Shown piece by piece: positions 7,195-54,856 of a DNA stretch of 64,000 nucleotides. The position numbers and the translations under genes were made by a program. The notes under the pieces are model-generated. The model did not search any database and was not told where the DNA came from. It worked only from the letters and a program-made list of their open reading frames with translations. Each line of letters opens with the position of its first letter. Position 1 is the first letter of the stretch. The DNA comes from Flavobacteriales bacterium (GTDB lineage Bacteria; Bacteroidota; Bacteroidia; Flavobacteriales_F; PHOS-HE28): assembly GCA_049289815.1 (NCBI GenBank), contig JBATMK010000325.1, forward strand, positions 848 through 64,847, read 5' to 3'.

Positions 7195-9651
7195 ATGGCA
7201 GCAGCGAAGGCCCCCGGCAAGGGAGGCGTCATCGACGTTAACGATCTGCGCTTTTTCCTGCGCATCGTACAGAAGAACTGGTATTTGGTGGTATTGGCCG
7301 TGGCCCTCTCGGCTGTGCTGAGCGCCTTGTACAGCTACAAGCTTCCGGAAGTGCACGGGGCCAGCACGCAGATCCTGTTGAAGGACCGCGAGGTGTTCAA
7401 CTACCAGACCCAGATCTACCAGAACATCGGCTACATAGCCGCCTACGGCGACATCGTGAACCAGAAGCGGGTGCTGACCAGCTACGACATGATCGACAAA
7501 ACGCTGGACAAGCTCGATTTCGACGTGAGCTACTACATCCTGGGCCGGTTGAAGACCACAGAGAAGTACCATGAACTGCCCTTCGAGGTGGATGCCGTAC
7601 CACTGGACAAGAGCCTTTACGAGAAGCCGATCGACGTGAAGATCGTGGATGCCGAAACCTTCACCATCACGTACGATGCGGGTAAGAGCGGCCCGGTGAG
7701 CTACACGTTGCCGTTCGATCGCGATACCAGCGCGGGCAACGACATCCGGTTGAAGGTCCGCCGCATGAAGCATATCACACGCGAGGCCTTGGCCTCCCTG
7801 GCCGATGGCGATTACCAGTTCGTGCTGCACAGCCGCCCATGGCTGGTGAACAAGTACAAGAGCAGCATGGATGTGGAGAACCTGGAGTACACCAGCATCC
7901 TGGAGATCAAGGTGGAGGATGAAAAGCCCGAGCGGGCGAAGTTGTTCCTCGATAGTCTCAGCACGGTGTACATACACTATACGCTGCAGAGCGAATTCGA
8001 TATCAACGACAACACCATGGGTTACATCGACAAACAGCTCGATGAGGTGACCGTGATATTGAACAGCTATGAGGACGACCTACAGAACTACAAGGAGAAC
8101 AAGAACATCCTGGACCTGAGCCGGGAGGAAGAGCGCTATTTCGACCAGCTGGTGAACTTCGACAACAACCGGCGTCAGTACGAGCTGATGATCGAGAGCC
8201 TCAACTCCTTGGAGGATTACGTGCTCAACATCGGCGATGAGGAATTGCTTCCACCAAGCTTCTACATCCTCCAAGGAGACATCTTCCTTACCAGCAGCGT
8301 AAGTGAACTGTACACCATGCAGATGGGCCGCAACCGGATGCTTCAGGATGCAACGGAAGAGAACCAGGCCATCTCCAAGCTCGACGAGACCATCGGCCTC
8401 ACCCGTAACAACCTGCTCACCTACATCATCAACGATCGCAAGGCCATCCAAGAGAAGATCGGTGACGTGAAGACGCAGATCGACGACTACGAAGGCTTGA
8501 TCCGCCGCATACCACAAAGTCAACGCGACATACTCAACATCGAACGCAAGGTCCAGGTGAATGAAAAGCTCTACCTCTTCCTGCTGGAGAAACGTGCCAA
8601 TACGGTGATCGCCAAAGCGGGTATCATCCCCCAGACCAAGGTGATCGAGCGCGCGCGCGGGCTTGGCGTTGTGCGCCCCGACAAATTGGGCATCCTGTAT
8701 TCCTTCATCGTGGGTGGCCTCATCCTGTCGCTCATCGTGGTCTTCATCAGGGTGATGTTCTATGACCGGATCGAGAACGCCGATCAGTTGCGGGCCATGA
8801 CACAGACCCCCGTGTTCGGGGAGATCATCGCCAGCGAGAAGGCCGAGGAGAACTACGTGGTGGTGGACAGCGATCCGAAGTCGGCCATCACCGAGAGCTT
8901 CCGTACGGTCCGCACCAACTTGGAATACCTGCCCCAGACGCCCGCGGGCAGATTGATCATGGTAACCAGTTACCGGCCCAACGAAGGCAAGACGTTCTGC
9001 AGCGTGAACCTGAGCGCGATACTGGCCAAAGCCGGCAAGAAGGTGCTGTTGCTGGAACTCGACCTGCACAAACCCAAAGTGGGAGCCGGGCTGGGCATGA
9101 CCAGCCCGATGGGTATCAGCAACCTGATGGTGGGCAAGTGCACCATCGAGGAAGTGATACTGGCCACGCACATCGAGAATTTCCATGTGATCCTCAGCGG
9201 ACCTACGCCGCCCAATGCGAGCGAGTTGGTGCTCAGCAAGCACATGAATGAGCTTTTCGCTTACGGCCGCGAGCACTACGATTACGTGATGATCGACACC
9301 CCGCCGGTTGGCCTGATCAGCGACGCGTTGGTGATGATGAAGCTCGTGGACGCCACCCTGTTCGTGGTGAACACGCGCTTCGCGAACAAGGACCACCTGA
9401 AGAGCGCCATGGAAGTTCACTTGGCGAACCCGGTTTCCAATTTCGGCTTCATCCTGAACGGGGTGAAAATGAAGAAGAGCAAGTACTACTATAACACCAA
9501 CTACGGCTATGGCTACCGCTATGCCTATGGGTATGGTTATGGTAGCGGCTACGGCTACGGTTATGGATACGGCCGCAAACGCCGCAGCAAGAAGGACGAT
9601 GAAGCCAAGCCGGAGGTTGAGCAGAAACGGAAGCCGGATACCCGCGCGTGA
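7195..9651 (+). CDS. wzc: Polysaccharide co-polymerase / BY-kinase (Wzc-like tyrosine autokinase chain-length determinant)
   Basis: Wzz-like N-terminal TM. A long coiled-coil periplasmic domain. A second TM, then a cytoplasmic P-loop kinase domain (VTSYRPNEGKTFCSVNLS Walker A, DTPP Walker B). The C-terminal tyrosine cluster is YYYNTNYGYGYRYAYGYGYGSGYGYGYGYG. ATG start chosen at 7195; the track ORF begins at a GTG at 7156. Confidence 0.85.
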   Translation: MAAAKAPGKGGVIDVNDLRFFLRIVQKNWYLVVLAVALSAVLSALYSYKLPEVHGASTQILLKDREVFNYQTQIYQNIGYIAAYGDIVNQKRVLTSYDMIDKTLDKLDFDVSYYILGRLKTTEKYHELPFEVDAVPLDKSLYEKPIDVKIVDAETFTITYDAGKSGPVSYTLPFDRDTSAGNDIRLKVRRMKHITREALASLADGDYQFVLHSRPWLVNKYKSSMDVENLEYTSILEIKVEDEKPERAKLFLDSLSTVYIHYTLQSEFDINDNTMGYIDKQLDEVTVILNSYEDDLQNYKENKNILDLSREEERYFDQLVNFDNNRRQYELMIESLNSLEDYVLNIGDEELLPPSFYILQGDIFLTSSVSELYTMQMGRNRMLQDATEENQAISKLDETIGLTRNNLLTYIINDRKAIQEKIGDVKTQIDDYEGLIRRIPQSQRDILNIERKVQVNEKLYLFLLEKRANTVIAKAGIIPQTKVIERARGLGVVRPDKLGILYSFIVGGLILSLIVVFIRVMFYDRIENADQLRAMTQTPVFGEIIASEKAEENYVVVDSDPKSAITESFRTVRTNLEYLPQTPAGRLIMVTSYRPNEGKTFCSVNLSAILAKAGKKVLLLELDLHKPKVGAGLGMTSPMGISNLMVGKCTIEEVILATHIENFHVILSGPTPPNASELVLSKHMNELFAYGREHYDYVMIDTPPVGLISDALVMMKLVDATLFVVNTRFANKDHLKSAMEVHLANPVSNFGFILNGVKMKKSKYYYNTNYGYGYRYAYGYGYGSGYGYGYGYGRKRRSKKDDEAKPEVEQKRKPDTRA
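9484..9570 (+). repeat. Degenerate tandem repeat encoding the (Gly-Tyr)n tail of Wzc
   Basis: tacggctat ggctaccgctat gcctatgggtat ggttatggt ... ggctacggctacggttatggatacggc. About 29 codons, roughly half Tyr. Confidence 0.7.
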
Positions 9652-9670
9652 TCACCATTTCCCTGACCGT

Positions 9671-10534
9671 ATGCCCACCACCGCAGCCGCCGACCGTGAG
9701 ACCCTTATCGGGCCCGACGGGCCTTGGTGGAAATTGGATCTGGCCGAGCTCTGGCGCTACCGCGATCTGGTGGCGTTGTTGGTGCGTCGGGACATCACCG
9801 CCGTATACAAGCAGACGGTCCTCGGTCCACTCTGGCATGTGATCCAGCCCTTGCTGACCTCCTTCATGTTCGCGTTGATCTTCGGGCGCGCCGCGGGGTT
9901 CGCACCCAAAGAGATCCCCGGCATGCTCTTCTACCTGAGCGGACTGGTGCCTTGGTTCTTCTTCGCGAACGTGGTGAACAAGACCAGCAAGACCTTCACG
10001 GCCAACGCGGCGTTGATGGGCAAGGTGTACTTCCCACGGCTCGCAGTGCCCCTGAGCGTGGCCATCAGCAACCTGGCCAGTTTCGGCATCCAATTCCTGG
10101 CCTTCCTCGTGCTGCTGATCAGCTATCACGTGTTCGATCCGGGTTTCACCTGGCATCCTTCACCGGCACTGTTGCTCCTGCCCTTGCTGGTCGTGATCAT
10201 GGGCTTGCTCGGCTTGGGATCCGGTATCCTGATCAGCGCGCTCACCACCAAATACCGCGACCTCAGTTTCCTTGTCGGCTTCGGCGTGCAACTGCTCATG
10301 TACGCGAGCCCCGTCATCTTCCCGCTCTCCCGGTTGCAACAGTTCCCCATGTTGCTCAAGGTGTTCAATGTGAACCCGATGACGAGTGTGATAGAGAGCA
10401 CCCGGGCGGTCTTCTTCGGCCAGGCGATCCCGTGGAACGGGTTGGGTTATACGTGCGTGTTCACGTTGTGCATCCTGATGCTCGGCACGGCGGTCTTCAA
10501 TCGGGTGGAGCGCTCCTTCGCCGATATCGTTTGA
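9671..10534 (+). CDS. wzm: ABC-2 type polysaccharide/O-antigen export permease (Wzm/KpsM/TagG family)
   Basis: 287 aa with six TM segments. ABC-2 signature region LWHVIQPLLTSFMFALIFG. Start refined to the ATG at 9671. Confidence 0.8.
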   Translation: MPTTAAADRETLIGPDGPWWKLDLAELWRYRDLVALLVRRDITAVYKQTVLGPLWHVIQPLLTSFMFALIFGRAAGFAPKEIPGMLFYLSGLVPWFFFANVVNKTSKTFTANAALMGKVYFPRLAVPLSVAISNLASFGIQFLAFLVLLISYHVFDPGFTWHPSPALLLLPLLVVIMGLLGLGSGILISALTTKYRDLSFLVGFGVQLLMYASPVIFPLSRLQQFPMLLKVFNVNPMTSVIESTRAVFFGQAIPWNGLGYTCVFTLCILMLGTAVFNRVERSFADIV

Positions 10535-10537
10535 ACG

Positions 10538-11797
10538 ATGGAAGGCATCGCGATCCGCGTTTCCGATGTGCACAAGCAATACCGTTTGGGCGTGTTCGGC
10601 GGTACCACGCTGGCCGAGGATCTCAAAGCGTGGTGGGCCAAGGTGAACGGCAGGCCCGATCCGCGTGTGCCCATCGGTAAGGAACACATGTCGCAGCGCT
10701 CGGGCGAGTTCTTCCTCGCACTGCGCGGCCTCAGCTTCGACATCAGGAAAGGAGAGATCGTGGGCGTGATCGGTCGCAATGGCGCTGGCAAGAGCACGCT
10801 GTTGAAGTTGATGTCGCGCATCACCTCACCAACGTCAGGCACCATCCGGATCACGGGCCGCACGAGCAGTTTGTTGGAGGTGGGAACGGGCTTCAATCCT
10901 GAACTGACCGGTCGCGAGAACATCTTCCTCAACGGCGCCATCCTGGGCATGCGCAAGCACGAGATCGATGCCCGGCTGCAGGCGATCATCAGCTTCAGCG
11001 GCATCGAGCACCATATCGACTCACCGGTGAAACGTTACAGCAGCGGCATGCGCGTACGCCTTGGTTTCGCGGTGGCCGCACATTTGGAGCCGGAAGTGCT
11101 CATCATCGACGAAGTGTTGGCCGTGGGCGACACCGAATTCCAGCGCAAATGCCTAGGCAAGATGAAGGACGTGGCCAACAGCGGCCGCACTATTCTCTTC
11201 GTAAGTCATAACATGACTTCCGTGAGGAGTTTGTGCAATCGCGTGATCTGGTTGCAGGAGGGCAGGGTGACCATGGACGGCCCTGCGGAGGATGTGGTGA
11301 ACGCCTACTTGCGCACCTACACCAACAACAACGATACGGTGGAATGGAGTGAAGCGGAGGCACCGGGCAATGAGCGTGTGCGGTTGCGCCGTGTGGCCAT
11401 CGAACGCGACGACGATGGAGCCTTGCTCACTTGGCGGACACCTTTCCGCGTCCGTGTCGGTTTCGATAACATCGGCATGAATGATGATGGATTGAACGTG
11501 GGCTTGCTCGTTTTCAACAGCGACGACATCCTCGTTTTCTCCACCAGCCTGCGGGAAGGGAGCACTTTCCGTGTGAAGCCCGGAACCAACAGCGTTTGGT
11601 GCGAGGTGCCTGCGGATCTGTTGAACATCGGTGACTACCGCATCACGGTGATGTTTTTCTACAATGCCAAGCGCCTTATGCGGCATGATGATACCGTGGC
11701 ATTCGCAGTCCACGACACCGAGCGCGAAGGTGCTTGGTACGGCAAGCGCAAGGGCGTAGTGATACCGATTCTGAAATGGGGCGCGGAGGGCGGTTGA
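10538..11797 (+). CDS. wzt: ABC transporter ATP-binding protein with a C-terminal glycan-binding domain (Wzt/TagH-like)
   Basis: Walker A GRNGAGKST, signature YSSGMRVRLGFAVA, Walker B LIIDEVLAVGD. An additional C-terminal domain of about 150 aa resembles the Wzt_C O-antigen-terminus-binding beta-sandwich. Confidence 0.85.
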   Translation: MEGIAIRVSDVHKQYRLGVFGGTTLAEDLKAWWAKVNGRPDPRVPIGKEHMSQRSGEFFLALRGLSFDIRKGEIVGVIGRNGAGKSTLLKLMSRITSPTSGTIRITGRTSSLLEVGTGFNPELTGRENIFLNGAILGMRKHEIDARLQAIISFSGIEHHIDSPVKRYSSGMRVRLGFAVAAHLEPEVLIIDEVLAVGDTEFQRKCLGKMKDVANSGRTILFVSHNMTSVRSLCNRVIWLQEGRVTMDGPAEDVVNAYLRTYTNNNDTVEWSEAEAPGNERVRLRRVAIERDDDGALLTWRTPFRVRVGFDNIGMNDDGLNVGLLVFNSDDILVFSTSLREGSTFRVKPGTNSVWCEVPADLLNIGDYRITVMFFYNAKRLMRHDDTVAFAVHDTEREGAWYGKRKGVVIPILKWGAEGG

Positions 11798-13551: not shown

Positions 13552-13561
13552 TGTCTCAGGG

Positions 13562-15988: not shown

Positions 15989-16789
15989 CTATGGCGCGAA
16001 CCGCTCGAGCCGCGTTCCCTTCAGATTGGCCAGTACTTCTTCGATGATGCCGGGGTCAAGCATCTCGCGCCAGCGATCGATCACGCTCTTGTTCTTGTAT
16101 ACCGCATAGTAGCTGTCGGTGTGGACCTGTCCGCTTTCCTGAAGGAACCGACGCGTCTGTTCCTCGAAGGTGATGTGGCAGAAGTCGAAAAGCCCGGGGA
16201 TGGACTTCATCGGATCATTCACGAGATCCTCGTACTGTACGATCCGGAAGCGATCGGGGTATTTATCCTGCAGGTCCAGGTAGAGGTGTGTCACCTCCTT
16301 CCATTTGTAATAGCCGAAGTAGTCCTCGTTGCCGATGTTCTTGCAGTTGCCGAAACGCCATTCCTTGCGGATGTCGGATCCCAGCGGGAATTCCTTCGCG
16401 TTCCGGCTCCAGCTATCGAGTACTCCACAGGGGTGACGAACGATACCGATGCCGGTCATCGAAGGTACGCGGCGCATCATGGGTTCCAGCACACTTTGGT
16501 AGCGGTTCTCCTTGAAAACCAGCGTGCGCGGAACGGCGAGCTTCTCGAAACGAGGGTATTCGCCGCTCGCCTGCTTGTCGGCCTGTGTCAGGAACGGTGT
16601 ATCGGCTGTGACCATCTCTTCGAAGAACCGCTCATATTCCTCACGCGTGCTGTTTTCGTTCACCCGCCCCTTGAACTCGTAAGAGAACAGCGGCTGGAAA
16701 CGGAACACCACCTCCGGCGAACTGTTGAACACCTGGCCGAGCCAGCTGGTACCGCTGCGCGCCACACCGAACAAGGCCACGGTCTTCAT
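15989..16789 (-). CDS. Sulfotransferase family protein (second copy)
   Basis: 5'-PSB loop LFGVARSGTSWLGQV. Size and motif spacing match PAPS sulfotransferases. Encoded on the opposite strand from the flanking operon. Confidence 0.65.
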   Translation of the reverse strand: MKTVALFGVARSGTSWLGQVFNSSPEVVFRFQPLFSYEFKGRVNENSTREEYERFFEEMVTADTPFLTQADKQASGEYPRFEKLAVPRTLVFKENRYQSVLEPMMRRVPSMTGIGIVRHPCGVLDSWSRNAKEFPLGSDIRKEWRFGNCKNIGNEDYFGYYKWKEVTHLYLDLQDKYPDRFRIVQYEDLVNDPMKSIPGLFDFCHITFEEQTRRFLQESGQVHTDSYYAVYKNKSVIDRWREMLDPGIIEEVLANLKGTRLERFAP

Positions 16790-17478
16790 CGGGTCACAAG
16801 CAGGTCGAAGCGGAAATGAGCACAGATCAGCTCGGGATCCTGCGCCAGCACTTCCGTGCGGGCAAAGCCGCTAGAGGCGCAGAGCGGCTGCAGCCATTCC
16901 CCGTCGAACCAGGTTCCTATCACATCGCGGCCGGCGATCAGGTTGTCGAAGTACAATGCCTGCCGCTCCGGTGTGTTGTAGAACGCCCAAAGCCGCGACC
17001 GGTCGGGGATGTCGCCGACGAACAACAGCCCACCGGGACGCAGCCAGCGTGCCATGCGCCGGAACAGCGCGATGCACTCCGCATGATCGATGTACTGTAG
17101 CCCGGCGTACAGCAGGATCCGGGAGAACGCGCCTTCGGGAAAATCGGCGGTGCGCATATCGACGCATTGGGTGGTGACATTGGGAAGTCCACGATGCTGC
17201 AGGGTGTGCAACAGGTCAGGAGAAATATCGACGGCCGTCACTGATCGGCATTTGGGCGCAAAATGCGCGGTGAAAAGGCCGTTGCCACAGCAGAGATCCA
17301 GCACGTCATCATCAGCGCCCACAGGATACACCTTGTCCAGCGTCTGAAGCGTGAAGCGCCAGCGTTGTTCGGTGATCGGCTCCTTGTTGAGCGTGCGCAA
17401 CACTTGCGTCTGCTCATCAGCGCCGCGGGTGCCACGTCCGTGGTCACGCCAGAATTCAAGCCAGCGATCGTCGCTCAT
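16786..17478 (-). CDS. Class I SAM-dependent methyltransferase
   Basis: Motif I VLDLCCGNGLFTAHFA. 4-nt overlap with the downstream sulfotransferase gene. Confidence 0.65.
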   Translation of the reverse strand: MSDDRWLEFWRDHGRGTRGADEQTQVLRTLNKEPITEQRWRFTLQTLDKVYPVGADDDVLDLCCGNGLFTAHFAPKCRSVTAVDISPDLLHTLQHRGLPNVTTQCVDMRTADFPEGAFSRILLYAGLQYIDHAECIALFRRMARWLRPGGLLFVGDIPDRSRLWAFYNTPERQALYFDNLIAGRDVIGTWFDGEWLQPLCASSGFARTEVLAQDPELICAHFRFDLLVTR

Positions 17479-18428
17479 CGGGGGTTCTGCAAGTGCTCAA
17501 CGAAGCGGCGAAGATCGTCAACGGTGTAGCGGTGATCCACCGGCAGGGGCAGTAATTCAGTGCTCAGGCGTTTCTCCCAGGCATAGCCTTCGATACCGCG
17601 TTCCAACTCATCGGGCCAAAGTTGCGGGGCGAAGAGTCCCTTCTCATACATCGCTGGCCGGTCGATCGGCACGGCAGGGAGATAGGGATAACAAAAAGGC
17701 ACGTCTGCGGGATCGAACCGGTACCGGAACGTGTTCGACGCACCAAGCTGTTCGTGGAAGTACCGGAAGTTCCTCCGGCGCGCGCTTTTCACAGCTTCGT
17801 GATCGACACCGCGCAGCAATCCCTCGCTGATCGCGCTGATGCGCTGGACGTCGCCAGTGAGCGATCGCTCATATGAGGTGTAGGCACGGTACGCTTCCGC
17901 CTGTCGGCCGAGCAGGCGCAGTAGACCGTGGTCGAGCGAGACGGCCGCAAAGCGTGCAGCATCGATCGCGACCGGTACCGGGGCAAAGAGAAATGCACCA
18001 TCCGGTACGCCGAAGTATTTCCGTGCTGAGGTGAATGACCAGTGACCGGCATGGCCGCCACGATAGAAGGCGTGGGTGTCATCGATGATCAACCGGTCGC
18101 TGTAGTGTGTCTTCAGCCGTTCAGTGATCGCACCACATACCCCGTAGTAGTCGATCCATAAGAAGTACTCGCCGCTTGCAAGATCCGGAAGTGAAACGGG
18201 GTGGAGATCTTCATCCAGCGCATAGAAACGCGTCCCCACGTTCGATCGCCGGAAAGGCTCCAACGAGGCGTCGCAGGTGTGGTAGGGCACATGCACGAGC
18301 TTCGGCTTCAGGTGCTGGAGCAATACTGTCAGGCAGGCACGGCCGGTACACAGTGCGACCGCCCCGGGGTGCGGGCTCCCGCCACCTCGAGGGAGCTCAA
18401 GTTCGAAGAATCCGCCGATCGGTTTCAT
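17475..18428 (-). CDS. DegT/WecE-like PLP-dependent aminotransferase (divergent)
   Basis: Weak similarity in fold and motifs (SFTSARKYFGVPDGA resembles the SF..K PLP-Lys region). Start refined to MKPIGGFFELE at 18428. Confidence 0.45.
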   Translation of the reverse strand: MKPIGGFFELELPRGGGSPHPGAVALCTGRACLTVLLQHLKPKLVHVPYHTCDASLEPFRRSNVGTRFYALDEDLHPVSLPDLASGEYFLWIDYYGVCGAITERLKTHYSDRLIIDDTHAFYRGGHAGHWSFTSARKYFGVPDGAFLFAPVPVAIDAARFAAVSLDHGLLRLLGRQAEAYRAYTSYERSLTGDVQRISAISEGLLRGVDHEAVKSARRRNFRYFHEQLGASNTFRYRFDPADVPFCYPYLPAVPIDRPAMYEKGLFAPQLWPDELERGIEGYAWEKRLSTELLPLPVDHRYTVDDLRRFVEHLQNPR

Positions 18429-18585
18429 GTGTGCGATCCGTTCACCCCCGCCTGCGTTGCCCAAGACCTTGAGCCCGGGTAATGGGGAGTGTTTTCGATG
18501 AGCACAGCCAAGGCAGGAGCACTTCCTGGTCCCATGGAGCAACATCGGCGTGCATAAAGCGCGGGATCTAGGGCCTGGTGCTGTA

Positions 18586-34465: not shown

Positions 34466-34490
34466 ACGCAAGGACTACTTTCGCGGGCCT

Positions 34491-35414: not shown

Positions 35415-35423
35415 AGGTTCAGT

Positions 35424-36863: not shown

Positions 36864-36881
36864 TGCTATGCCCGGCAGCGG

Positions 36882-38156: not shown

Positions 38157-38189
38157 GGAACGCGAAGGTGATGGGACGGTGGTGGCCGA

Positions 38190-38957: not shown

Positions 38958-39226
38958 GGGTGGAACGAACAAGTCGCGGATAGCTGGCTGCGCCAGGCGA
39001 TCTTCCCGATGCCTGTCCGGTGGACAAGAATACGCACTGCCCCAGAACCCCATGGAGCATGCGTTCCCCGCGGCGCTGTGGCGTCCGTGTGCATCCCGGA
39101 GCAGTGCTCGTCGGGAACGATGGCATTGATCCGTGAGGCCGCGGTCCTGACTTCACAGCGTGAACGAAGGATTAGTTTCGCGCCCGCCCCAACAGGCCGG
39201 GTCCGCTCAACCCAGTAAGGTCCAAC

Positions 39227-40219: not shown

Positions 40220-41277
40220 CCAATGGCAGTGAGCGGACCATGCGTGTGATCGGCATCAGCAACAAGACGCGCTACTGGCAGCACTACGCGTTCAGCAATC
40301 CGCCGGAGGGTTACCGTTACAGCCGCATGGCCGATGTGCCGTGGCATGTGTTGAAGGTGAGCAACCAGTTCCTTGCCCACACCAAATTGTTCCATCCGCT
40401 CAAGAAGGCGGACATCTTCCACACCTACAACAGCATCGTGGTGAACCACCGGCCGTGGGTGATCGAGGTGGAGAGCTACCTGCCACGGTACAAGCCGATG
40501 CCCGAGAGCCACCCGTTCTTCAAATGGGGCCTGCGGCGCTTGCGTAGCAAAGAGTGCAAGGCGTTGGTGTACACCAGCGAGAACACGGCGCGCATGAACC
40601 GTGATCGGCTGATCGAGCAGGGCGTGGATCCTGCCAAAATGCACGTGATCTATCGTGCCATTGAGCAGTACCTGCCCGGCGAGAAGGACAAGGAACGTTT
40701 CACGATCCTCTTCGCCGGCAACGGGTTCTACCGCAAGGGTGGCGTGGAATTGCTCAAGGCGTTCCAGCGGTTGGGGCGGGCCGATGCACGCCTGGTGATC
40801 GTGAGCACCCTGGAAGTGGATTGGGGCATCACGCCCTCGTTGGAGGACATTGCATATGTGGAGAAGACCATTGCCGAGGACAAGCGCATAACGCTGCACC
40901 GTGGCATGAGCCACGCTGCGTTGTTGCAGGAAATGCGCAAGGCGCATGTCTTCGTCAGCACCACGTTCGCCGACCCCTTCAACAACACGGTGCTGGAGGC
41001 CATGGGTGCACAGTTGCCTGTGATCAGCAGCGTCGTGAGTTCGATACCGGAAATGGTGGAACACGAGGGCAACGGCTGGTTGCTGCCGGTCAATGATCGC
41101 AGCAGCGATGCCATCGCCGGCGATATCACCGGCCACCTGCGACAGCTCATGGACGACCCTGCGCTTTTGCAACGCATGTGTGCGCGATCGCTGGCCATCA
41201 CACGGGAGAAGTTCGACCTGCGCGTACGCAATAGGCGTATGGTCGAACTCTACGACAAGGCTCTGGAAGGGAGGTAA
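40216..41277 (+). CDS. Glycosyltransferase family 4
   Basis: TTFADPFNNTVLEAMGAQLPVISSVVSSIPEMV EX7E motif. ATGA-type overlap with the upstream epimerase gene. Confidence 0.75.
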   Translation: MTNGSERTMRVIGISNKTRYWQHYAFSNPPEGYRYSRMADVPWHVLKVSNQFLAHTKLFHPLKKADIFHTYNSIVVNHRPWVIEVESYLPRYKPMPESHPFFKWGLRRLRSKECKALVYTSENTARMNRDRLIEQGVDPAKMHVIYRAIEQYLPGEKDKERFTILFAGNGFYRKGGVELLKAFQRLGRADARLVIVSTLEVDWGITPSLEDIAYVEKTIAEDKRITLHRGMSHAALLQEMRKAHVFVSTTFADPFNNTVLEAMGAQLPVISSVVSSIPEMVEHEGNGWLLPVNDRSSDAIAGDITGHLRQLMDDPALLQRMCARSLAITREKFDLRVRNRRMVELYDKALEGR

Positions 41278-42876: not shown

Positions 42877-43649
42877 TTGTTGTAGCAGCAACGGAAGTTG
42901 TTCGTGCCCAACGGGACCTGGGTCCCACCGCCATAGCAATCGGGGTTCATCGTTCCGGTTGTCAGGCCTGCGCGCTTTCCATGGTTGATGTCGTTGGCAG
43001 CACTATCGACCCATTCATACTCCACAATGCTGTTGACGAAACCGCCCGGCATGCTGCAACCCCGGAACCAATCGGCCCAACCGCACAAGCGCAAGCCGCG
43101 CAAACCGCATTGGCTCACAGCATTGTACCACGATGTGGGCCCATAGGGCACTGCCTCTGCGCACACCTCCCGGCTTACGTCCAGGAAACCCGGAGGGCAC
43201 GCGATACCGGTTTGCGAGAGCAGTTGGAAAGCGGCGCCATCATACACCAGCAGGACTGGAATGCCGGGTCGCAGATCCGCGCTGTCGAGCTGTTCCGTAG
43301 TGAATTTCAGTACCGGCACAGCACCAAGCCCATCCACGTTCAAGGTGGTCGGTGCCGTATTGGCAACGCTGGGCGTAATGCTCAGCAGCATGCCTGCGGT
43401 GTAACCGGTGATAGCGGGGACCAGGACAGCAGTGAGCGCATCGGTGCCTTGTGCCACGGCATAGGTGGTGCTTTGCGTGCGCACGCTCGCTGCGTTCGCC
43501 CCGTGATCGGCGGCGGTGGGCAAGGCAAGGCCCATCAATTGGCGATCCGCAGGAGTGGCACCATCCAAGACCACAGGCACCGGCAAATCCCATTGTGCGT
43601 TCGCGGCGACGCACGCGAGAACGGCGAGAACGGTGAGTGAATGCTTCAT
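42873..43649 (-). CDS. Secreted Cys-rich C-terminal domain protein (tandem paralogue 3)
   Basis: MKHSLTVLAVLACVAANAQ signal peptide. CPPGFLDVSREVC...QCGLRGLRLCGWADWFRGC...EYEWV...FRCCYNK. Confidence 0.55.
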   Translation of the reverse strand: MKHSLTVLAVLACVAANAQWDLPVPVVLDGATPADRQLMGLALPTAADHGANAASVRTQSTTYAVAQGTDALTAVLVPAITGYTAGMLLSITPSVANTAPTTLNVDGLGAVPVLKFTTEQLDSADLRPGIPVLLVYDGAAFQLLSQTGIACPPGFLDVSREVCAEAVPYGPTSWYNAVSQCGLRGLRLCGWADWFRGCSMPGGFVNSIVEYEWVDSAANDINHGKRAGLTTGTMNPDCYGGGTQVPLGTNNFRCCYNK

Positions 43650-44518
43650 GGTTTCACGAAGCGCAGTTGATGTGTGCCGTTCACCAATACGGCATAGGCC
43701 CCCGGCGACAACATTGAAATGTCAATGACAGCGTTGGTGGTGGATGCGGAGCCCGAGTACACGATCCGGCCGCGCGCATCGAACACCTGGAACGGGCCGA
43801 TCCGTGTTGCGCCATGCACTGTAACAGTTCCGGTGGCCACGGTAGGGAACAGGTGGAAACCATCGCGACCGACCAACACCGCTACATCGGAGATCACCGC
43901 ATCATCGAAGAGGGTGAACCAGCCCAAACTGTCGGGCAGGGTTGCCGTAGCCGTGTGTGCGCCGAGATCGATCGTGCTGCCGAGCTCCGGCCACCAAGTG
44001 CCACCAGTGCCACTGCGCGCCATGCGCAGGGCGGCTTCAGGGATCCCGTTCAGTTCGGTAAGGTCGAAGAACAACACGCCACTTGCACCAAGCGCTTGCA
44101 CCGCTCCGGATCTCACGCGGTACCAACGTGCGATGCTCTCCACAGCGAGGTTGTTGATGCGCGGCAGATGTCCGCGCTCCACAATGAAACTGTCGGGCGC
44201 AAGAGCAGTGGTGAAGCTGAAACCGAGCCCGGCCGGTTCGGTGAAAGTGAGCGGTGCACTGTAGAGGCGGGAAGTGATCTCGGTACCTGCACCGGTAATG
44301 GGCGCACCCGCTTGCTCATCCAGTTCCGCTTGCGGGCCGAAGACGATACGGCCATCGTTCACCATGTATGATCCAGCCTCAACAGTGAAGCTGACCGGCG
44401 CTTCGATGTGAAGGGTCGTGCCATTGCTCACGGCCAATGACGTGCCCTGATGCAAGACCATCTGGCCTTGGCAAGTCATAGAGACCACTGCAATGCAAGA
44501 AAGAAGGGCCCGCTTCAT
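43646..44518 (-). CDS. T9SS type-A C-terminal sorting domain protein (secreted cargo)
   Basis: Signal peptide MKRALLSCIAVVSMTCQGQ. The C-terminal roughly 80 aa (..IVYSGSASTTNAVIDISMLSPGAYAVLVNGTHQLRFVKP) matches the Por-secretion tail. ATGA overlap with paralogue 3. Start refined to 44518. Confidence 0.6.
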   Translation of the reverse strand: MKRALLSCIAVVSMTCQGQMVLHQGTSLAVSNGTTLHIEAPVSFTVEAGSYMVNDGRIVFGPQAELDEQAGAPITGAGTEITSRLYSAPLTFTEPAGLGFSFTTALAPDSFIVERGHLPRINNLAVESIARWYRVRSGAVQALGASGVLFFDLTELNGIPEAALRMARSGTGGTWWPELGSTIDLGAHTATATLPDSLGWFTLFDDAVISDVAVLVGRDGFHLFPTVATGTVTVHGATRIGPFQVFDARGRIVYSGSASTTNAVIDISMLSPGAYAVLVNGTHQLRFVKP

Positions 44519-46500: not shown

Positions 46501-47871
46501 ATGATCGCCTTCGTCCGCGAATACCTGCAGTTCTTCTTGATCATACTGGTGTGGGTGGTGACAACCATCTACCTGGGTCCGCTGATCTATTTGATCATGC
46601 CGGCCACCTTTTTCATGTTCCGTGCGCAGGGTAAGTACCAAGAGATAGTGATGGGCTTCCTGATCGTGCTGATCATGTCGGACATCGATCCGGATATGAT
46701 CGCAATGGGTCCGGTGAAGGAGGCGAAGAACTTCGTGATGCTCACCCTGGCGATCATCTTCTTCATGGAGCGCCCGAAATTCGAGCCGCTCAGTGGCATC
46801 TTCCCGATCTTCCTTCCGTTCTTCGTCTATTCCATTTTCCCGCTCATCTTCAGTGGCCGGATCGTGGTGGCCTCACAGAAGACGCTGAGCTACGCATTGC
46901 TGTTCCTGTTGGTGCCGAATTGGTTCCTCCTGAACTTCCGGTTGTACAAGTGGGACTTCGTGCGTAACCTCATCTACTTCATCTGCCTGGTTTTGTTGGT
47001 GGCACCGCTGATCGGCCAGATCGAGCGCTGGTACACCATCATCGATGGCCGGTACCGTGGTGTGTTCGGCAACCCCAACGGATTGGGCATTTTCTGCTTC
47101 CTCAGCTTCCTGGTGGTGGCCGTGGCGGAGCACATCAACAAAGAGCTCTTCCCCAGCAGGATCATGCGCTACCTCGTGTACGGCATCATCCTGCTCAACC
47201 TGATCCGGTGCGGGTCGCGCACCGGCCTCACCGCCACCTTGCTGTTCCTGGTCTTCTCCCGGTTCTTCAGCGTTTCCCCCTTCATCGGCTTCATCATCTT
47301 CCTCTTGTTCGTCGCGGGTTTGCACTACCTCACGAGCAACCTGGCCCACATCGTCATCTCGCTCGGGTTGCAGGACTTCATGCGGGTGGATACGCTGGAG
47401 GATGGGAGCGGCCGCTACTTCGCATGGGCCTTCGCCTGGGAGAAGATCCAGGACTATTTCCTGTTGGGCGGTGGTTTCGGTAACGATGAGTATGTGATGC
47501 GGCAGCACTACGTGTATCTGCGTTCGATGGGCCACCACGGCGGGGTGCACAACAGTTACCTCACCATGTGGTTCAATGTGGGCATCATCGGACTGGGTAT
47601 CTATCTGCGCAGCCTGTTCGTCACCTTCGTGAAAGCGAGCAAGCTCACACCCATCGCCTTCGCGGTGCTCTTCGCCATCCTGTTCAGCGCGCTGTATGAA
47701 AGCTGGCTCAACGGCTCGTTGAACCCCTTCACCATCCTGGTGGTGATCGTAATGACCATGATCAGCGAGGAGGAAGTGGCCCACTGGCGTGAATACGAAG
47801 TGGACGCTCTCCAGCAGGATGAAGTTGAAGCCCTTGAGCCAGCACCCGTGTTGATCCTGCCGGCCCGATAG
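46501..47871 (+). CDS. O-antigen ligase / polymerase family membrane protein (Wzy/WaaL-like)
   Basis: 456 aa, about 10-12 TM helices, with a large loop carrying the conserved region RCGSRTGLTATLLFLVFS...LGGGFGNDEY typical of Wzy_C domains. Confidence 0.6.
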   Translation: MIAFVREYLQFFLIILVWVVTTIYLGPLIYLIMPATFFMFRAQGKYQEIVMGFLIVLIMSDIDPDMIAMGPVKEAKNFVMLTLAIIFFMERPKFEPLSGIFPIFLPFFVYSIFPLIFSGRIVVASQKTLSYALLFLLVPNWFLLNFRLYKWDFVRNLIYFICLVLLVAPLIGQIERWYTIIDGRYRGVFGNPNGLGIFCFLSFLVVAVAEHINKELFPSRIMRYLVYGIILLNLIRCGSRTGLTATLLFLVFSRFFSVSPFIGFIIFLLFVAGLHYLTSNLAHIVISLGLQDFMRVDTLEDGSGRYFAWAFAWEKIQDYFLLGGGFGNDEYVMRQHYVYLRSMGHHGGVHNSYLTMWFNVGIIGLGIYLRSLFVTFVKASKLTPIAFAVLFAILFSALYESWLNGSLNPFTILVVIVMTMISEEEVAHWREYEVDALQQDEVEALEPAPVLILPAR

Positions 47872-47958: not shown

Positions 47959-49383
47959 ATGCTCTTCAACTCGTTCGCGTTCATCGTCTTCCTGCCGCTG
48001 GTCTTTCTCGGTTACTGGTGGTTGTTCGGCCGCTCCTTGCGCGGGCAGAACCTGTTCATCATTGCCGCCAGCTACCTGTTCTACGGGTGGTGGGACTGGC
48101 GCTACCTGATCCTGCTCTTCGTCAGTTCGTTCACCGATTACTGGCTGGGGATCTACATCGACAGCAACGAGGACCAACGCAAACGCAAGCGGGCCCTCAT
48201 CCTGAGCCTGGTGTTCAACCTGGGCATCCTGGGCTTCTTCAAGTACTTCAACTTCTTCATCGACAGTTTCGCCGACCTGCTGCGTTCGGTGGGTTTCCAG
48301 CCCAACATGTGGAGTTTGCGGGTGATCCTTCCGGTGGGCGTGAGCTTCTACACGTTCCAATCGCTCAGCTATACCATCGAGGCGTATAGGCGCAACTTCA
48401 AACCGGCCCGCGACCCGATCGCCTATCTCGCGTTCGTCAGCTTTTTCCCGCACATGGTGGCCGGCCCCATCATGCGGGCGGTCGACCTGTTGCCGCAGTT
48501 CCAGCGCCTGCGCACCTTCGATATGGCGAAGGCCCGCGACGGTGCGCGCCAGATGCTCTGGGGCTTCTTCAAGAAGATCGCCATCGCCGATCCCTGTGCA
48601 TGGATGGTGAACCGCATCTTCGATATGGACCCGGCACAAACGCCCGGCATCACGCTGTTCTTCGGTGCCGTCTTCTTCGCCTTCCAGATCTACGGCGATT
48701 TCAGCGGCTACTCCGATATCGCCATCGGTTGCGCGCGCTTCTTCGGCATCGACCTGATGCGCAACTTCAACTACCCGTATTTCTCGCGCAGCATCGGCGA
48801 GTTCTGGCGCCGCTGGCACATCAGCCTCAGTACGTGGTTCCGCGATTTCCTCTATGTTCCTTTGGGCGGGAGCCGTGTGCCGCGGGGGCGACACATCCTC
48901 AATCTCATGATCACCTTCACCATCAGCGGCCTCTGGCACGGCGCCAACTGGACTTTCGTGACGTGGGGCGCCTTGAACGGCGCGTACTACGTGCCTGAAG
49001 TGCTCTCCGGCACCAAGGAACGCATCGGGCACCCGATGTTGCGCGACCTGCCGCGCATCCTCTTCACGTTCGTACTGGTCACCCTCACTTGGGTGTTCTT
49101 CCGATCGGTTTCGATCCACGATGCCTTCGCTTACCTGCGCTACACGTTCGCGAACATCGGTTCGCATCCTGGCGCTGCTCTGGTGTGGCTGCAAAGCCAA
49201 CAGGCGCTGTTGGTGGGTGTGCTGTTGGTGGTGGAATGGATCCGCCGTCGGCGCCAGCACCCATTGGAGGATATTCACTTCCACGTGGCCGTTCGCTGGA
49301 TGATCTACCTGGTGATCGCCCTCGTGGTGCTCTACAAGCTGAACGTTGATGCCGAGAACGAGTTCATCTATTTCCAGTTCTGA
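47959..49383 (+). CDS. MBOAT family O-acyltransferase (second copy, AlgI/DltB-like)
   Basis: Paralogue of 28166..29599 (MLFNSFAF..., FWRRWHISLSTWFRDFLYVPLGGSR, GLWHGANW). About 50% identical by eye. Confidence 0.85.
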   Translation: MLFNSFAFIVFLPLVFLGYWWLFGRSLRGQNLFIIAASYLFYGWWDWRYLILLFVSSFTDYWLGIYIDSNEDQRKRKRALILSLVFNLGILGFFKYFNFFIDSFADLLRSVGFQPNMWSLRVILPVGVSFYTFQSLSYTIEAYRRNFKPARDPIAYLAFVSFFPHMVAGPIMRAVDLLPQFQRLRTFDMAKARDGARQMLWGFFKKIAIADPCAWMVNRIFDMDPAQTPGITLFFGAVFFAFQIYGDFSGYSDIAIGCARFFGIDLMRNFNYPYFSRSIGEFWRRWHISLSTWFRDFLYVPLGGSRVPRGRHILNLMITFTISGLWHGANWTFVTWGALNGAYYVPEVLSGTKERIGHPMLRDLPRILFTFVLVTLTWVFFRSVSIHDAFAYLRYTFANIGSHPGAALVWLQSQQALLVGVLLVVEWIRRRRQHPLEDIHFHVAVRWMIYLVIALVVLYKLNVDAENEFIYFQF

Positions 49384-49384
49384 A

Positions 49385-50311
49385 ATGCGCAGCGAGGTCA
49401 ATGCCTTCCTGGTCCGCTTGCTGCTCTTCGGATCGGTGCTCGGCTCCGTGCTTGCGGTGGTGGCTGTCACCGGTCCGTTGCTCGGCTATATAGATTACAT
49501 GGGGGCTATACGCAGCAAGCACCAGCGGCTGGCATCCACGCCTTCGCCACGGCTGGTGATCATCGGTGGTTCCAACGCAGCGTTCGGCATCAACAGCACG
49601 GAACTGGAACAGGCCGTGGGCATGCCGGTGGTGAACATGGCCCTGCACGGGAGTCTGGGCTACCGCTTCATGGTGAACGAAGTGATCGACGATCTGCGCG
49701 AAGGGGACGTGCTGCTGGTGGTACCCGAGCATTCTCAGTTCCAAACGCCGGAAAAAACACAGGATGTACTGTACAGCGCCTTGGAGCTGTACCCGCCAGC
49801 TTGGCGCTACGTTCCGGTCGCTTCCTGCGTGCAGGTGGCGTTGACCTATTCCGTCAAGAAGCTCCAGGCCGCCGTTGATGTCGTGGTCGATCCGGACATT
49901 CCCAAACCCGAACCCGTATACCGTGCCGATGGGTTCGATGAGCGCGGCGACCTGCTGTTGCATTTGAACAGGGTGAGCTTCGGGACGAAGTATGCCAAGC
50001 CGATGGAAGTGGATCGCATTGATGTGCCCTGGCTTTTCTGGGCCATAACCGATCGACTGACGAACAGGGCGGATAGGCAGCACTTCAAGGTGCTCTTCGC
50101 CTGGCCCAGCCAGGCACGCTCAACGGCCAAGGCGAGCATTGATGCCGGTCTGGTGGAAGACCTCAAGGCCCACGACATTGCCATTGTAGGGCAGCCCGAA
50201 GAGCATGTCTATGACGATTCGCTCTTCTACGATACCAAGTACCACTTGGGCGGCGTAGGCCGCGAGTTGCGGACACAACGGTTGATCACGGATCTGAAGG
50301 GCGCCCTCTGA
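49385..50311 (+). CDS. MBOAT partner protein (second copy, AlgJ/DltD-like)
   Basis: N-terminal TM, then RLVIIGGSNAAFGINS (SGNH-like block I). Same gene-pair layout as 28166..30548. Confidence 0.5.
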   Translation: MRSEVNAFLVRLLLFGSVLGSVLAVVAVTGPLLGYIDYMGAIRSKHQRLASTPSPRLVIIGGSNAAFGINSTELEQAVGMPVVNMALHGSLGYRFMVNEVIDDLREGDVLLVVPEHSQFQTPEKTQDVLYSALELYPPAWRYVPVASCVQVALTYSVKKLQAAVDVVVDPDIPKPEPVYRADGFDERGDLLLHLNRVSFGTKYAKPMEVDRIDVPWLFWAITDRLTNRADRQHFKVLFAWPSQARSTAKASIDAGLVEDLKAHDIAIVGQPEEHVYDDSLFYDTKYHLGGVGRELRTQRLITDLKGAL

Positions 50312-53896: not shown

Positions 53897-53920
53897 ATTC
53901 GCAGCCTTCAACAACCACGC

Positions 53921-54856
53921 ATGGCGAGGATACTGGTAACGGGAGGCGCGGGCTTCGTGGCGAGCCACTTGGCCGAGAAATTGGCCATGGACACCGCCAA
54001 CGAGGTGACCATTGTGGACAACCTCCTCACGGGCGATATGGCCAAGCTGCCGGTGCACCTGCCCAATGTGCGGTTCATCAAGTGCGATGCGAACCGCTTC
54101 GAGGACATCAGCGCGGTGTTCTATGCGCACCGTTTCGAGTACGTGTTCCATTACGCCGCCGTGGTAGGGGTGAAGCGCACGACCGACAACCCTGTGATGG
54201 TGCTGCGCGACATCGATGGCATCCGCAACGTGCTCGACCTGTCGAAGAACACCGGTGTGAAGCGCGTGTTCTTCAGCAGCAGCAGTGAGGTGTACGGCGA
54301 GCCGGTGGAAATACCGCAGAACGAGAAGACCACCCCGCTCAACAGCAAGCTGCCGTACGCCATCGTGAAGAACATCGGAGAGGCGTTCCTGCGGAGCTAC
54401 CAAAAGGAATACGGCCTGGAGTACACGGTCTTCCGCTTCTTCAACACCTACGGTCCCAAGCAGAGCCGCGATTTCGTGGTGAGCAAGTTCATGCGAGCGG
54501 CGATCAAGGGCGAGGACATCACCGTTTACGGCGATGGCAGCCAGACGCGGACCTTCTGTTGGGTCGACGACAACATCGACGCATGCGTGAACGCGTTCCA
54601 GCGCAACGCCGTCCTCAACGATGTGGTGAACATCGGGAGCGACAAGGAGATCACGGTGCTCGAACTGGCCAAGCTGGTCATCGAGCTTACGGGTTCCAAG
54701 AGCAGGATCGTTCACCTACCTCCACTGGAAGAAGGCGATATGACACGGCGCATGCCCGACATCTCCCTTATGCGCCAACTGCTGGGCCGCGAGCCCTTGC
54801 CGCTGCGCGATGGGTTGATGCGCATCCTGAAGGACCCGCGGTTCATCTTGAATTGA
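53921..54856 (+). CDS. NAD-dependent epimerase/dehydratase (UDP-glucuronate decarboxylase / UXS-like)
   Basis: GGAGFVASHL, DNLLTG, catalytic YAIVKNIGE (YxxxK), FRFFNTYGPKQ (UXS-type NTYGP signature). Confidence 0.7.
   Translation: MARILVTGGAGFVASHLAEKLAMDTANEVTIVDNLLTGDMAKLPVHLPNVRFIKCDANRFEDISAVFYAHRFEYVFHYAAVVGVKRTTDNPVMVLRDIDGIRNVLDLSKNTGVKRVFFSSSSEVYGEPVEIPQNEKTTPLNSKLPYAIVKNIGEAFLRSYQKEYGLEYTVFRFFNTYGPKQSRDFVVSKFMRAAIKGEDITVYGDGSQTRTFCWVDDNIDACVNAFQRNAVLNDVVNIGSDKEITVLELAKLVIELTGSKSRIVHLPPLEEGDMTRRMPDISLMRQLLGREPLPLRDGLMRILKDPRFILN

Follow-up and report, generated by a model that had tools for sequence, protein, structure and literature searches.

Export by an ATP-binding cassette (ABC) transporter and subsequent ligation by WaaL form the standard O-polysaccharide pathway. 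In current schemes, ABC pathways are paired with kinase-less polysaccharide co-polymerases (PCP) of the class PCP-3 (PMC12220298; bioRxiv 10.1101/2022.02.11.480155). Here we analyse a stretch of 64,000 nt from an uncultured Flavobacteriales bacterium of a wastewater type (GenBank assembly GCA_049289815.1, contig JBATMK010000325.1, positions 848 to 64,847 of the forward strand), termed the window in the following, which contains a large surface-glycan locus. In this locus, the gene of a predicted tyrosine autokinase co-polymerase, Wzc, is followed directly by the genes of a putative O-antigen-type ABC exporter, Wzm and Wzt. As judged from gene order, Wzc directly precedes such an exporter across about 60 related species, and this pairing is not found in textbooks.

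By analogy, the locus seems to work most like an ABC-dependent O-polysaccharide pathway with a co-polymerase borrowed from group 1 capsule systems. Like the ABC-dependent systems of E. coli O9a/O8 and Aquifex aeolicus (WzmWzt), it encodes an ABC-2 permease, an ATPase with a binding domain and a putative WaaL-type ligase, it includes methyltransferases as possible capping enzymes, it has no flippase and seemingly no polymerase, and its initiating transferase would lie outside the locus. Unlike these systems, it has a conserved and apparently kinase-competent Wzc directly upstream, contains sulfotransferases and carries the ligase gene in an operon with CotH genes; furthermore, its biosynthetic set is very large and heterogeneous, and no WbdD-type terminator was identified. 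The Wzc of the locus is a full PCP-2a protein in the conserved flank of a variable biosynthetic region, as in the group 1 capsule and colanic acid systems (Wza-Wzb-Wzc). However, Wza, Wzb, Wzx and WbaP are found neither in the locus nor near Wzc in the clade, and the variable region opens with wzm-wzt. In group 2 capsule systems (KpsMT, KpsE, KpsD), an ABC-2 exporter is likewise genetically coupled to a co-polymerase, and we propose a functional analogy, although the co-polymerase of our locus is a tyrosine kinase by its motifs (PCP-2a) and not a PCP-3 protein, KpsD, KpsC and KpsS are missing, and Wzt has an O-antigen-type binding domain. We thus rejected a membership in group 2, as there is no KpsC, KpsS or KpsD (no Poly_export or Capsule_synth domain) and the co-polymerase carries a kinase domain.

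Two further comparisons concern neighbouring genes and size. PEP-CTERM/EpsH loci and the XrtF system of Flavobacterium johnsoniae also combine an exosortase and a sorting-signal protein in cis with a chain-length determinant or tyrosine kinase and many GT4 glycosyltransferases (GTs), and in three relatives of our locus (L085-L087; related loci are given L numbers) an AsnB-like gene that closes the locus adds to this likeness to exosortase-associated exopolysaccharide loci. In contrast to those loci, the signal here is PID-CTERM, the exosortase is of an XrtX-like kind, a mini-protein of 74 aa is the only substrate found, and export would be of the ABC type. PMC10936215, citing McBride 2009, describes a multi-operon cell-surface polysaccharide cluster of 76.5 kb in F. 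johnsoniae, which belongs to the same order. Our locus is likewise very large and composed of several units, a likeness of size and number of units; thus, its size and gene richness alone are ordinary. It is set apart by the Wzc-Wzm-Wzt unit and by a module of CotH and WaaL-like genes.

A preliminary description of the locus had called it mechanistically mixed, as it contains Wzc, Wzm/Wzt and a Wzy-like protein. We find that Wzm/Wzt together with a WaaL-like protein corresponds to the canonical O-polysaccharide route, so that one oddity is left of the claimed mixture, namely Wzc with an ABC exporter. On the sequence evidence, the non-canonical element is thus this apparently kinase-competent Wzc next to the exporter and not the combination of an ABC exporter with a Wzy-like protein.

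Wzc and the adjacent ABC exporter

Genes were called with a codon-usage model that was trained on the long open reading frames (ORFs) of the window itself, and starts were refined by overlaps and by comparison to identical or related public contigs. The gene inventory was then checked with Pfam and NCBIfam models, which were scored against their cut-offs. The unit in question consists of three genes:

7156..9651, plus strand: Wzc, tyrosine autokinase co-polymerase of class PCP-2a (Pfam Wzz, GNVR and AAA_31)
9671..10534, plus strand: Wzm, ABC-2 permease (ABC2_membrane, E=3e-19)
10538..11797, plus strand: Wzt, ABC ATPase (ABC_tran) with a C-terminal carbohydrate-binding domain at about residues 262-419

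The true start of Wzc is probably the ATG at 7195 and not the GTG at 7156, as it fits the N-terminus of the homologues. Wzc reaches 158 bits with TIGR01007 (cut-off 108) and has the PCP-2a architecture: two predicted transmembrane (TM) segments, near residues 37 and 513, around a large periplasmic domain (Wzz at residues 30-120, GNVR at 455-534), followed by kinase motifs and a tyrosine cluster. The Walker A motif P608xEGKT613, the A' motif E634-L-D636, the B motif D714TPP717 and the Tyr/Gly-rich C-terminal tail (residues 777-806) are invariant in 18 homologues. Thus, Wzc looks kinase-competent.

The ATG of wzm lies 19 nt past the stop codon of wzc. The ATPase domain of Wzt is closest to Wzt of A. 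aeolicus (8dku/7k2t, E=1e-63) and to TagH, and a profile of 34 Wzt C-termini matches the carbohydrate-binding domain of the same Aquifex protein (8dky/6o14, E about 2.5e-5). In addition, the domain PF14524 (Wzt_C) is recorded in precomputed annotation of several orthologues, and all Wzt proteins of the clade have 412-433 aa. According to PMC9445017, Wzt carbohydrate-binding domains recognise a chemically modified chain terminus; the presence of such a domain thus implies the export of finished, capped chains. Which enzyme would add the cap can be named in terms of candidates only: a sulfotransferase that directly follows Wzt (in 19/52 loci), nearby methyltransferases and a TagF-like enzyme. 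No protein with the architecture of the chain terminator WbdD was found in the locus.

The usual partners of Wzc are missing. Pfam models detected no Poly_export (Wza), LMW-PTP (Wzb), MOP-family flippase (Wzx), Bac_transf, Glycos_transf_4 or KpsC/S domain in the 64-kb window. With this, the window has no cognate phosphatase near Wzc (neither Wzb/LMW-PTP nor PHP type) and no initiating phosphoglycosyl transferase of the WbaP/WecA type. A hydropathy scan leaves no unassigned polytopic protein in the window as a flippase candidate: the only polytopic proteins are Wzm, the Wzy_C-family protein described below, two MBOAT proteins, a 132-aa protein and the exosortase pair. We furthermore searched the six-frame ORFs of the window and of 87 loci (1.5 Mb in total) using phmmer with Wza, Wzb and Wzc of E. 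coli K-12 as probes. Wza and Wzb gave zero matches in these loci of about 80 species, whereas the Wzc control matched 85 ORFs; a very divergent outer-membrane exporter could evade a single-sequence Wza probe. Wza is also absent from the Pfam tables of five related loci. The absence of a Wza-like exporter from the window, already reported in the preliminary description, is thus borne out by both the Pfam scan and the E. coli probe.

The wzc-wzm-wzt unit in related genomes

A scan of species-representative genomes with a Wzc alignment yielded 80 loci (87 loci are used in some counts), all of which belong to Flavobacteriales, Cryomorphaceae or metagenome-assembled genomes labelled 'Bacteroidetes', with a Wzc identity of 51-84%. 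From their isolate names, we take many of these relatives to be metagenome-assembled genomes from Danish activated sludge (wastewater-plant study). The comparison reveals a locus of two conserved arms around a variable centre, and on this basis we regard the region as one chromosomal surface-glycan locus that is common to a clade of uncultured Flavobacteriales and consists of several predicted transcription units. The recurrent order in the left arm is glyA, a small membrane protein and an exosortase-like protein on the minus strand, followed by wzc-wzm-wzt-sulfotransferase-DegT on the plus strand. On contig JADJCX010000001.1, Wzc is found at about 195 kb and a WaaL-like gene at about 231 kb, so that the whole island occupies the same chromosomal site there as in the window.

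The exporter genes were counted in two ways. A strict search (tblastn, E<1e-10, at least 50% coverage, 63 loci with at least 2.5 kb downstream of Wzc) detects Wzm in 50/63 and Wzt in 53/63 loci. With a more sensitive search (phmmer, Wzm homologue on the same strand within 5 kb, 62 loci), Wzm follows Wzc in 61/62 loci, and Wzm together with the Wzt ATPase domain is found in 58/62. A very divergent Wzm/Wzt allele (Wzm E=1e-9 to 1e-22 compared to the usual value of about 1e-88) stands behind the same conserved Wzc in 13 loci (L044-L046, L048, L051, L052, L058, L059, L063, L066, L072, L075 and L084), and these divergent alleles carry a different Wzt C-terminal domain that is not recognisable. This allele class recalls serotype-specific exporter variants.

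The adjacency of wzc and wzm also persists while the neighbours rearrange, as a conserved block around WecB has switched sides in about 20 relatives, in which the adjacency to glyA is also lost. From the adjacency through both rearrangement and allele swap, we conclude that Wzc behaves as the conserved flank of a variable region that opens with wzm-wzt. The genes behind Wzt are less constant: of 52 loci, 19 have a sulfotransferase gene directly 3' of Wzt, 28 have one within 8 kb, and 45 have DegT within 8 kb.

The Wzy_C protein resembles the ligase WaaL

The second component of the proposed pathway is encoded in the right arm:

46501..47871, plus strand: putative WaaL-type ligase of the Wzy_C family with about 11-12 TM segments (Wzy_C 47 bits, cut-off 31.7)

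The preliminary description had read this protein as Wzy-like. The Wzy_C match stands, but fold and motif are of the WaaL type. An AlphaFold2 model based on an alignment of 42 sequences (pLDDT 83.6, pTM 0.84) gives WaaL (7tpg_B) as the sole significant PDB match in a Foldseek search (E=6.7e-4, probability 1.0, TM 0.49/0.54); a sequence profile of the orthologues had no match among PDB sequences. Invariant across the 42 orthologues are R240, R295, R305, H345 and H350-N351-x9-G361-xx-G364, with the motif segment reading GGVHNSYLTMWFNVGIIG. The last of these fits the WaaL ligase motif, which has the formula H[NSQ]x9Gxx[GTY]. Furthermore, the invariant Arg and His residues fit the Arg/Arg/His triad in the periplasmic loops of E. 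coli WaaL, R215, R288 and H338 (PMC3643930).

The orthologues are 47-85% identical, have 450-464 aa and occur throughout the clade, several of them on the same contigs as Wzc. By these comparisons, the protein is a conserved orthologue and not a hypervariable polymerase gene of the serotype type. As regards a repeat-unit polymerase, the locus thus offers a Wzy_C-family protein with a WaaL fold and motif, for which polymerase activity is possible from the sequence. Considering the ligase motif and fold together with Wzm/Wzt and the missing flippase, the simplest role of this protein is that of a predicted ligase. The suggestion of the preliminary description that an ABC-exported polymer is then ligated is therefore probably right, given the WaaL fold, the motif and the conserved orthologue, yet such a route is canonical and not hybrid.

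Proposed pathway and alternatives

We propose, with a probability of roughly one half, that the locus encodes an ABC-dependent pathway for a sulfated or otherwise decorated glycan, in which the WaaL-like protein acts as the ligase and Wzc as the co-polymerase partner of the exporter. The GT2 and GT4 enzymes would assemble the whole glycan on a lipid carrier in the cytoplasm, with the initiating transferase encoded elsewhere, and would incorporate (amino, N-acetyl) sugars derived from WecB, the SDR enzymes and DegT. Two sulfotransferases and the S-adenosylmethionine (SAM) methyltransferases would decorate the glycan in the cytoplasm as well; none of them has a signal peptide or TM segment predicted by a hydropathy and TM scan, which fits a full cytoplasmic assembly. 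The carbohydrate-binding domain of Wzt would then recognise the modified chain end, and Wzm/Wzt would export the polymer. In the periplasm, pairs of MBOAT and SGNH-like proteins may O-acylate the polymer, and the WaaL-type protein may ligate it to lipid A-core or another acceptor. Wzc would act similarly to KpsE, as a co-polymerase or regulatory partner of the ABC route that hands the polymer to an unlinked outer-membrane component. Domain identities, motifs, the WaaL-like fold, the synteny counts and the missing genes are results of the analysis, whereas we infer the lipid carrier, the order of these steps, the sulfation of this glycan, the acceptor of the ligation and, above all, the physical and functional coupling of Wzc to Wzm/Wzt; that coupling is suggested by the lack of Wza, Wzb, Wzx and Wzy in cis together with wzm-wzt being nearly always next to wzc.

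Several points weigh against this proposal. The evidence for the coupling of Wzc to the exporter is synteny, and synteny has exceptions: L083 contains no ABC pair, and L081 is among the few loci with a broken wzc-wzm-wzt order, since wzt and wzm lie on opposite sides of wzc there owing to an inversion, with the exosortase pair downstream. In L002, wzc-wzm-wzt-sulfotransferase-DegT form a unit of five genes that runs straight into the ribosomal genes rpsF-rpsR-rplI, so that a linkage of the two arms is not obligatory. According to reviews, PCP-2a proteins belong to Wzx/Wzy pathways (PMC12220298), and our literature searches found no precedent for Wzc with Wzm/Wzt or for a wzc-wzm-wzt operon. 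A Wzx/Wzy/Wza set served by this Wzc may lie elsewhere in the genome, as our searches covered the window and the loci of the clade. As for the ligase, the PDB matches included no Wzy structure, which may have tilted the fold comparison towards WaaL, and the unusual CotH operon that holds the WaaL-like gene fits no standard pathway.

The best surviving alternative, which the preliminary description had raised as well and which we consider unlikely, is that the locus serves two or more independent glycans. Wzm/Wzt and the WaaL-like protein would then make an O-polysaccharide, Wzc (perhaps with the exosortase) would serve a Wzx/Wzy-type exopolysaccharide encoded elsewhere, and the wzc-wzm adjacency would be an inherited gene order with no functional link. 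There is precedent: E. coli O9a:K30 and Klebsiella have a capsule locus with Wzc that adjoins a Wzm/Wzt O-antigen locus. The modular structure of our locus is also in line with this explanation: the genes form seven strand blocks, a promoter motif of its own is found in the right arm, and L002 has the left arm by itself. An unlinked exporter would not be unusual either, since the outer-membrane exporter gene of Synechocystis lies apart from its cluster (PMC8205485). Separate glycans are, however, hard to reconcile with a wzc-wzm gap of merely 19 nt, with an adjacency kept in 61 of 62 species despite shuffled neighbours and a replaced ABC allele, and with the finding that none of the roughly 80 loci has Wza or Wzb at a distance of up to 10 kb from Wzc.

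A hybrid pathway of the Wzy type is quite improbable. Here, Wzm/Wzt would take over the flipping of lipid-linked units from Wzx, their polymerisation in the periplasm would fall to the Wzy_C protein and Wzc would set the chain length, with a conserved product similar to a 'common antigen' made by the conserved WecB, SDR and GT4 genes. The combination of Wzc, a Wzy_C protein, WecB and DegT does recall the enterobacterial common antigen locus, the window has no Wzx, the conserved GT4/SDR/WecB genes move together with the Wzy_C module, and the Pfam family Wzy_C takes in some polymerases. Nevertheless, the Wzy_C protein has the ligase-type motif H-N-x9-G-xx-G and WaaL as its sole structural match, the cytoplasmic sulfo- and methyltransferases fit a complete assembly in the cytoplasm, and the carbohydrate-binding domain of Wzt implies capped and finished chains (PMC9445017). 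Even less probable is that the Wzy_C protein is a PglL-like protein O-oligosaccharyltransferase that glycosylates three tail-fibre-like paralogues and a protein with a type IX secretion system (T9SS) sorting domain: PF04932 covers both WaaL and PglL, pglL genes often adjoin the genes of their target proteins (PMC3643930) and these four secreted proteins are encoded divergently from the operon in a conserved arrangement, yet the protein has no match to PglL_A (PF15864), with PF04932 as its sole match at E<0.01, and its gene lies inside a glycan locus, which PMC3643930 treats as a WaaL trait.

An exosortase X-like protein and its presumed substrate flank Wzc

Upstream of wzc, three genes are encoded on the opposite strand:

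5745..6203, minus strand: membrane protein with four predicted TM segments, weakly of the XrtX-associated type (NF046082 32.8 bits, below the cut-off of 75)
6200..6748, minus strand: exosortase X-like protein (NF046081, XrtX, 156 bits, cut-off 170)
6748..6972, minus strand: PID-CTERM mini-protein of 74 aa (NF046080, PID_CTERM, 33.9 bits, above the cut-off of 26)

The exosortase X-like protein also scores 83 with XrtF (cut-off 90) and 49 with the exosortase signature TIGR04178 (cut-off 23). Its gene is present in 71/83 loci and that of the adjoining membrane protein in 64/83. The 74-aa gene came to light by a triplet-periodic conservation in an alignment of the supposed intergenic DNA between XrtX and Wzc. 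It lies immediately upstream of the exosortase X-like gene and is missed by lists of ORFs of at least 100 aa. The encoded protein combines a signal peptide and a 'GGPPIGGPPPCWPPPC' core with an IPIDGG motif, a TM helix and a basic tail, and is presumed to be the exosortase substrate; its mature core PPVGGPPPCWPPPC is nearly invariant. One PID-CTERM ORF was found in 69/87 loci, and the window holds only one. The three genes form a divergent operon that has a short control region in common with wzc.

In F. johnsoniae, biofilm formation needs xrtF and its partner (PMC10936215); our literature searches on XrtX and PID-CTERM returned spurious matches only. A bolder proposal, and one that we hold to be improbable, is that the left arm is a single undescribed machine, in which Wzc is dedicated to the O-antigen-type ABC exporter and replaces Wza/Wzb/Wzx/Wzy, and exosortase X attaches a Pro/Cys-rich PID-CTERM peptide of about 18 residues to the glycan, which is often sulfated and contains an amino sugar.

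Gene content and layout of the locus

Between 7156 and 54856, we find 43 genes, 33 on the plus and 10 on the minus strand. The latter are grouped in three blocks (15989-18545, 36540-39053 and 41324-44461), which gives a total of seven strand blocks. Besides the genes listed above, the left arm, the variable centre and the regions that follow it contain:

11994-12809, plus strand: sulfotransferase (Pfam)
12868-13551, plus strand: methyltransferase (Pfam)
13562-14740, plus strand: TagF-like glycerophosphotransferase (Pfam)
14840-15982, plus strand: DegT aminotransferase (Pfam)
15989..18545, minus strand: convergent block of a sulfotransferase, a methyltransferase and a 356-aa unknown protein (Pfam), joined by 4-bp overlaps; 59-68% identical in L079
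18826..30548, plus strand: variable centre with GT2, methyltransferase, GT4, GT4, GT2, GT2, GT4, GT4, MBOAT and SGNH-like partner (Pfam)
28166-29599, plus strand: first MBOAT, within the variable centre (Pfam)
29601-30548, plus strand: its SGNH-like partner (Pfam)
30593..36530, plus strand: 'WecB block' with GT2, LbH acetyltransferase, WecB, weak GT4-like protein, SDR and GT4 (Pfam and NCBIfam)
36540..39053, minus strand: 107-aa unknown protein, GT4 and methyltransferase (Pfam); the GT4 is conserved in L085 and L086

The variable centre has only patchy matches in relatives. In contrast, the WecB block is conserved but mobile: it lies downstream in the window, whereas about 20 relatives have it on the minus strand, upstream of the exosortase.

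In total, the Pfam and NCBIfam annotation supports Wzc, Wzm, Wzt, 12 GT2/GT4 glycosyltransferases (4 GT2 and 8 GT4, one of the latter weak), the TagF-like enzyme (Glyphos_transf 31 bits, cut-off 22), two sulfotransferases, four SAM methyltransferases, one DegT, WecB (TIGR00236 292 bits, cut-off 210), three proteins of the SDR epimerase/dehydratase family, one LbH acetyltransferase, two MBOAT and partner pairs, two CotH proteins and one Wzy_C protein. The partner gene 3' of each MBOAT gives faint SGNH/AlgX signals only. NCBIfam models had no match for the Wzy_C protein, for either CotH protein or for the TagF-like protein, and Rfam and tRNA scans of the window gave no match.

Much of the preliminary description is thereby confirmed, including Wzc, Wzm/Wzt, the TagF-like enzyme, WecB, the LbH protein, the MBOAT pairs and the two CotH proteins as well as the numbers of sulfotransferases, methyltransferases and SDR proteins. 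Its bounds of 7195-54856 are good too, since 7195 is an ATG 13 codons into the longest Wzc ORF and the last SDR gene has its stop codon at 54856. Other counts had been too high: it gave about 45 genes, at least 14 GT2/GT4 enzymes and two DegT aminotransferases, compared to our 43 genes, 12 enzymes (plus the TagF-like one) and a single DegT. The candidate for a second DegT, the 356-aa protein at 17475-18545 on the minus strand, was ruled out (BLAST E=1 compared to DegT, no Pfam match). The label UXS-like for the final epimerase is not supported, as no equivalog model reaches its cut-off for any of the three SDR proteins.

The locus is flanked by housekeeping genes, with glyA on the upstream side and DUF6089, NMO, a CHU_C protein and guaB on the downstream side. 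Further upstream, at 404-1710 on the plus strand, a DUF5819-like protein and an HTTM-domain protein, both slightly under their Pfam cut-offs, form a pair that is kept in L003 and L004. T9SS sorting domains in the window agree with an origin in Bacteroidota, and identical copies of the encoded proteins are present on short Logan contigs and on a contig of an NCBI metagenome-assembled genome. The GC content is flat along the window (0.57-0.63, about 60%); together with the same chromosomal site in a relative, this makes a recent horizontal acquisition of the island unlikely.

The right arm

The right arm surrounds the WaaL-like gene with the following genes:

39227..41277, plus strand: SDR and GT4 with an ATGA overlap, the first genes of the arm (Pfam); 84-93% identical in L085 and L086
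41324..43649, minus strand: three tandem secreted paralogues of 258 aa; N-terminal domain similar to phage tail fibres, C-terminal domain rich in Cys
43646..44461, minus strand: secreted protein with a weak T9SS C-terminal sorting domain (Por_Secre_tail 23 bits, below the cut-off of 27); gene call from L001
44603..46494, plus strand: 132-aa polytopic membrane protein, then a membrane-anchored CotH protein (45007-46494; CotH E=5e-40)
47959..50311, plus strand: second MBOAT and partner (Pfam)
50355-52859, plus strand: CotH/beta-helix protein of 834 aa; this second CotH is weak (25.9 bits, cut-off 23.8)
52856-53896, plus strand: Metallophos-like protein of 346 aa (Pfam)
53921-54856, plus strand: last SDR (Pfam); 77-97% identical in relatives

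The arrangement is kept in L085-L087, where the WaaL-like protein is 81%, 71% and 53% identical, respectively. The kept order starts with GT4, GT4 (minus strand), SDR and GT4, followed by the three 258-aa genes and a gene of about 290 aa (minus strand), and continues with the 132-aa membrane protein at the head of the operon, CotH, the WaaL-like protein, the 834-aa CotH/beta-helix protein, the Metallophos-like protein and SDR, before it closes with DUF6089, NMO and the CHU_C protein. As an optional insertion, the second MBOAT pair is present in the window and L086 and absent from L085 and L087. After the last SDR, L085-L087 have an AsnB-like amidotransferase, in place of which the window has a protein with a T9SS sorting domain (54880-55707, minus strand).

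Two proteins of the CotH family of atypical kinases thus bracket the WaaL-like gene in a conserved operon, together with the 132-aa and the Metallophos-like proteins. A Beta_helix match is recorded for the L086 orthologue of the 834-aa protein. Literature searches did not link CotH to O-antigen or glycan ligases.

The 258-aa paralogues are 32-34% identical to each other, and the triplet is conserved in L085-L087. A profile of 12 sequences matches the PDB sequences of the tail fibre gp47 (9b45, E=2.8e-16) and 8oks_B (E=2e-4). In their N-terminal half, the paralogues show homology to phage tail-fibre domains (9b45 gp47; PB1-like Pseudomonas phages), and the Cys-rich C-terminal half resembles 8oks_B, which its depositors named 'Peptidase S74 domain-containing protein'. 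AlphaFold2 gave a model of low confidence for these paralogues from an alignment of three sequences (pLDDT 35.8).

Transcription units

The preliminary description had presented the locus as co-directional, with nearly all genes on the plus strand and many ATGA overlaps. The overlaps are there: 14 gene pairs overlap by 4 bp, and 9 of these overlaps are ATGA on the plus strand. The co-directionality was overstated; it is true for the 33 plus-strand genes, whereas 10 genes on the minus strand, seven strand blocks and an internal promoter motif at 44570 stand against it. A single 47-kb operon was rejected because of the seven strand blocks. The gaps between convergent gene ends are merely 6-46 nt.

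As promoters of Bacteroidota differ, we searched for the -7 motif TAnnTTTG and not for sigma-70 promoters. Between 2738 and 61670 it occurs only four times, always within the 4.4% of bases that are intergenic and about 30-70 nt upstream of a gene start:

7007, minus strand: about 30 nt upstream of the PID-CTERM gene (exosortase operon)
44570, plus strand: 33 nt upstream of the first gene (132 aa) of the CotH/WaaL operon
56899, minus strand: intergenic motif
60130, plus strand: intergenic motif

The motif is absent upstream of wzc on the plus strand. Taken together, strand blocks and promoter motifs suggest that the island consists of several transcription units.

Implications

A wzc-wzm-wzt unit that is found clade-wide would add a further combination to the schemes of polysaccharide export. 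If the proposed coupling is true, it suggests that tyrosine-kinase control is applicable to ABC-exported polymers. Furthermore, the locus gives a defined glycan setting to an exosortase/PID-CTERM system and to CotH-family proteins. Lastly, sulfated glycoconjugates frequently occur among the extracellular polymers of granular sludge, whereas their producers and the sulfotransferase pathways are largely unknown (PMC10483923); the locus that we describe here is a concrete candidate pathway for such sulfated sludge glycans.

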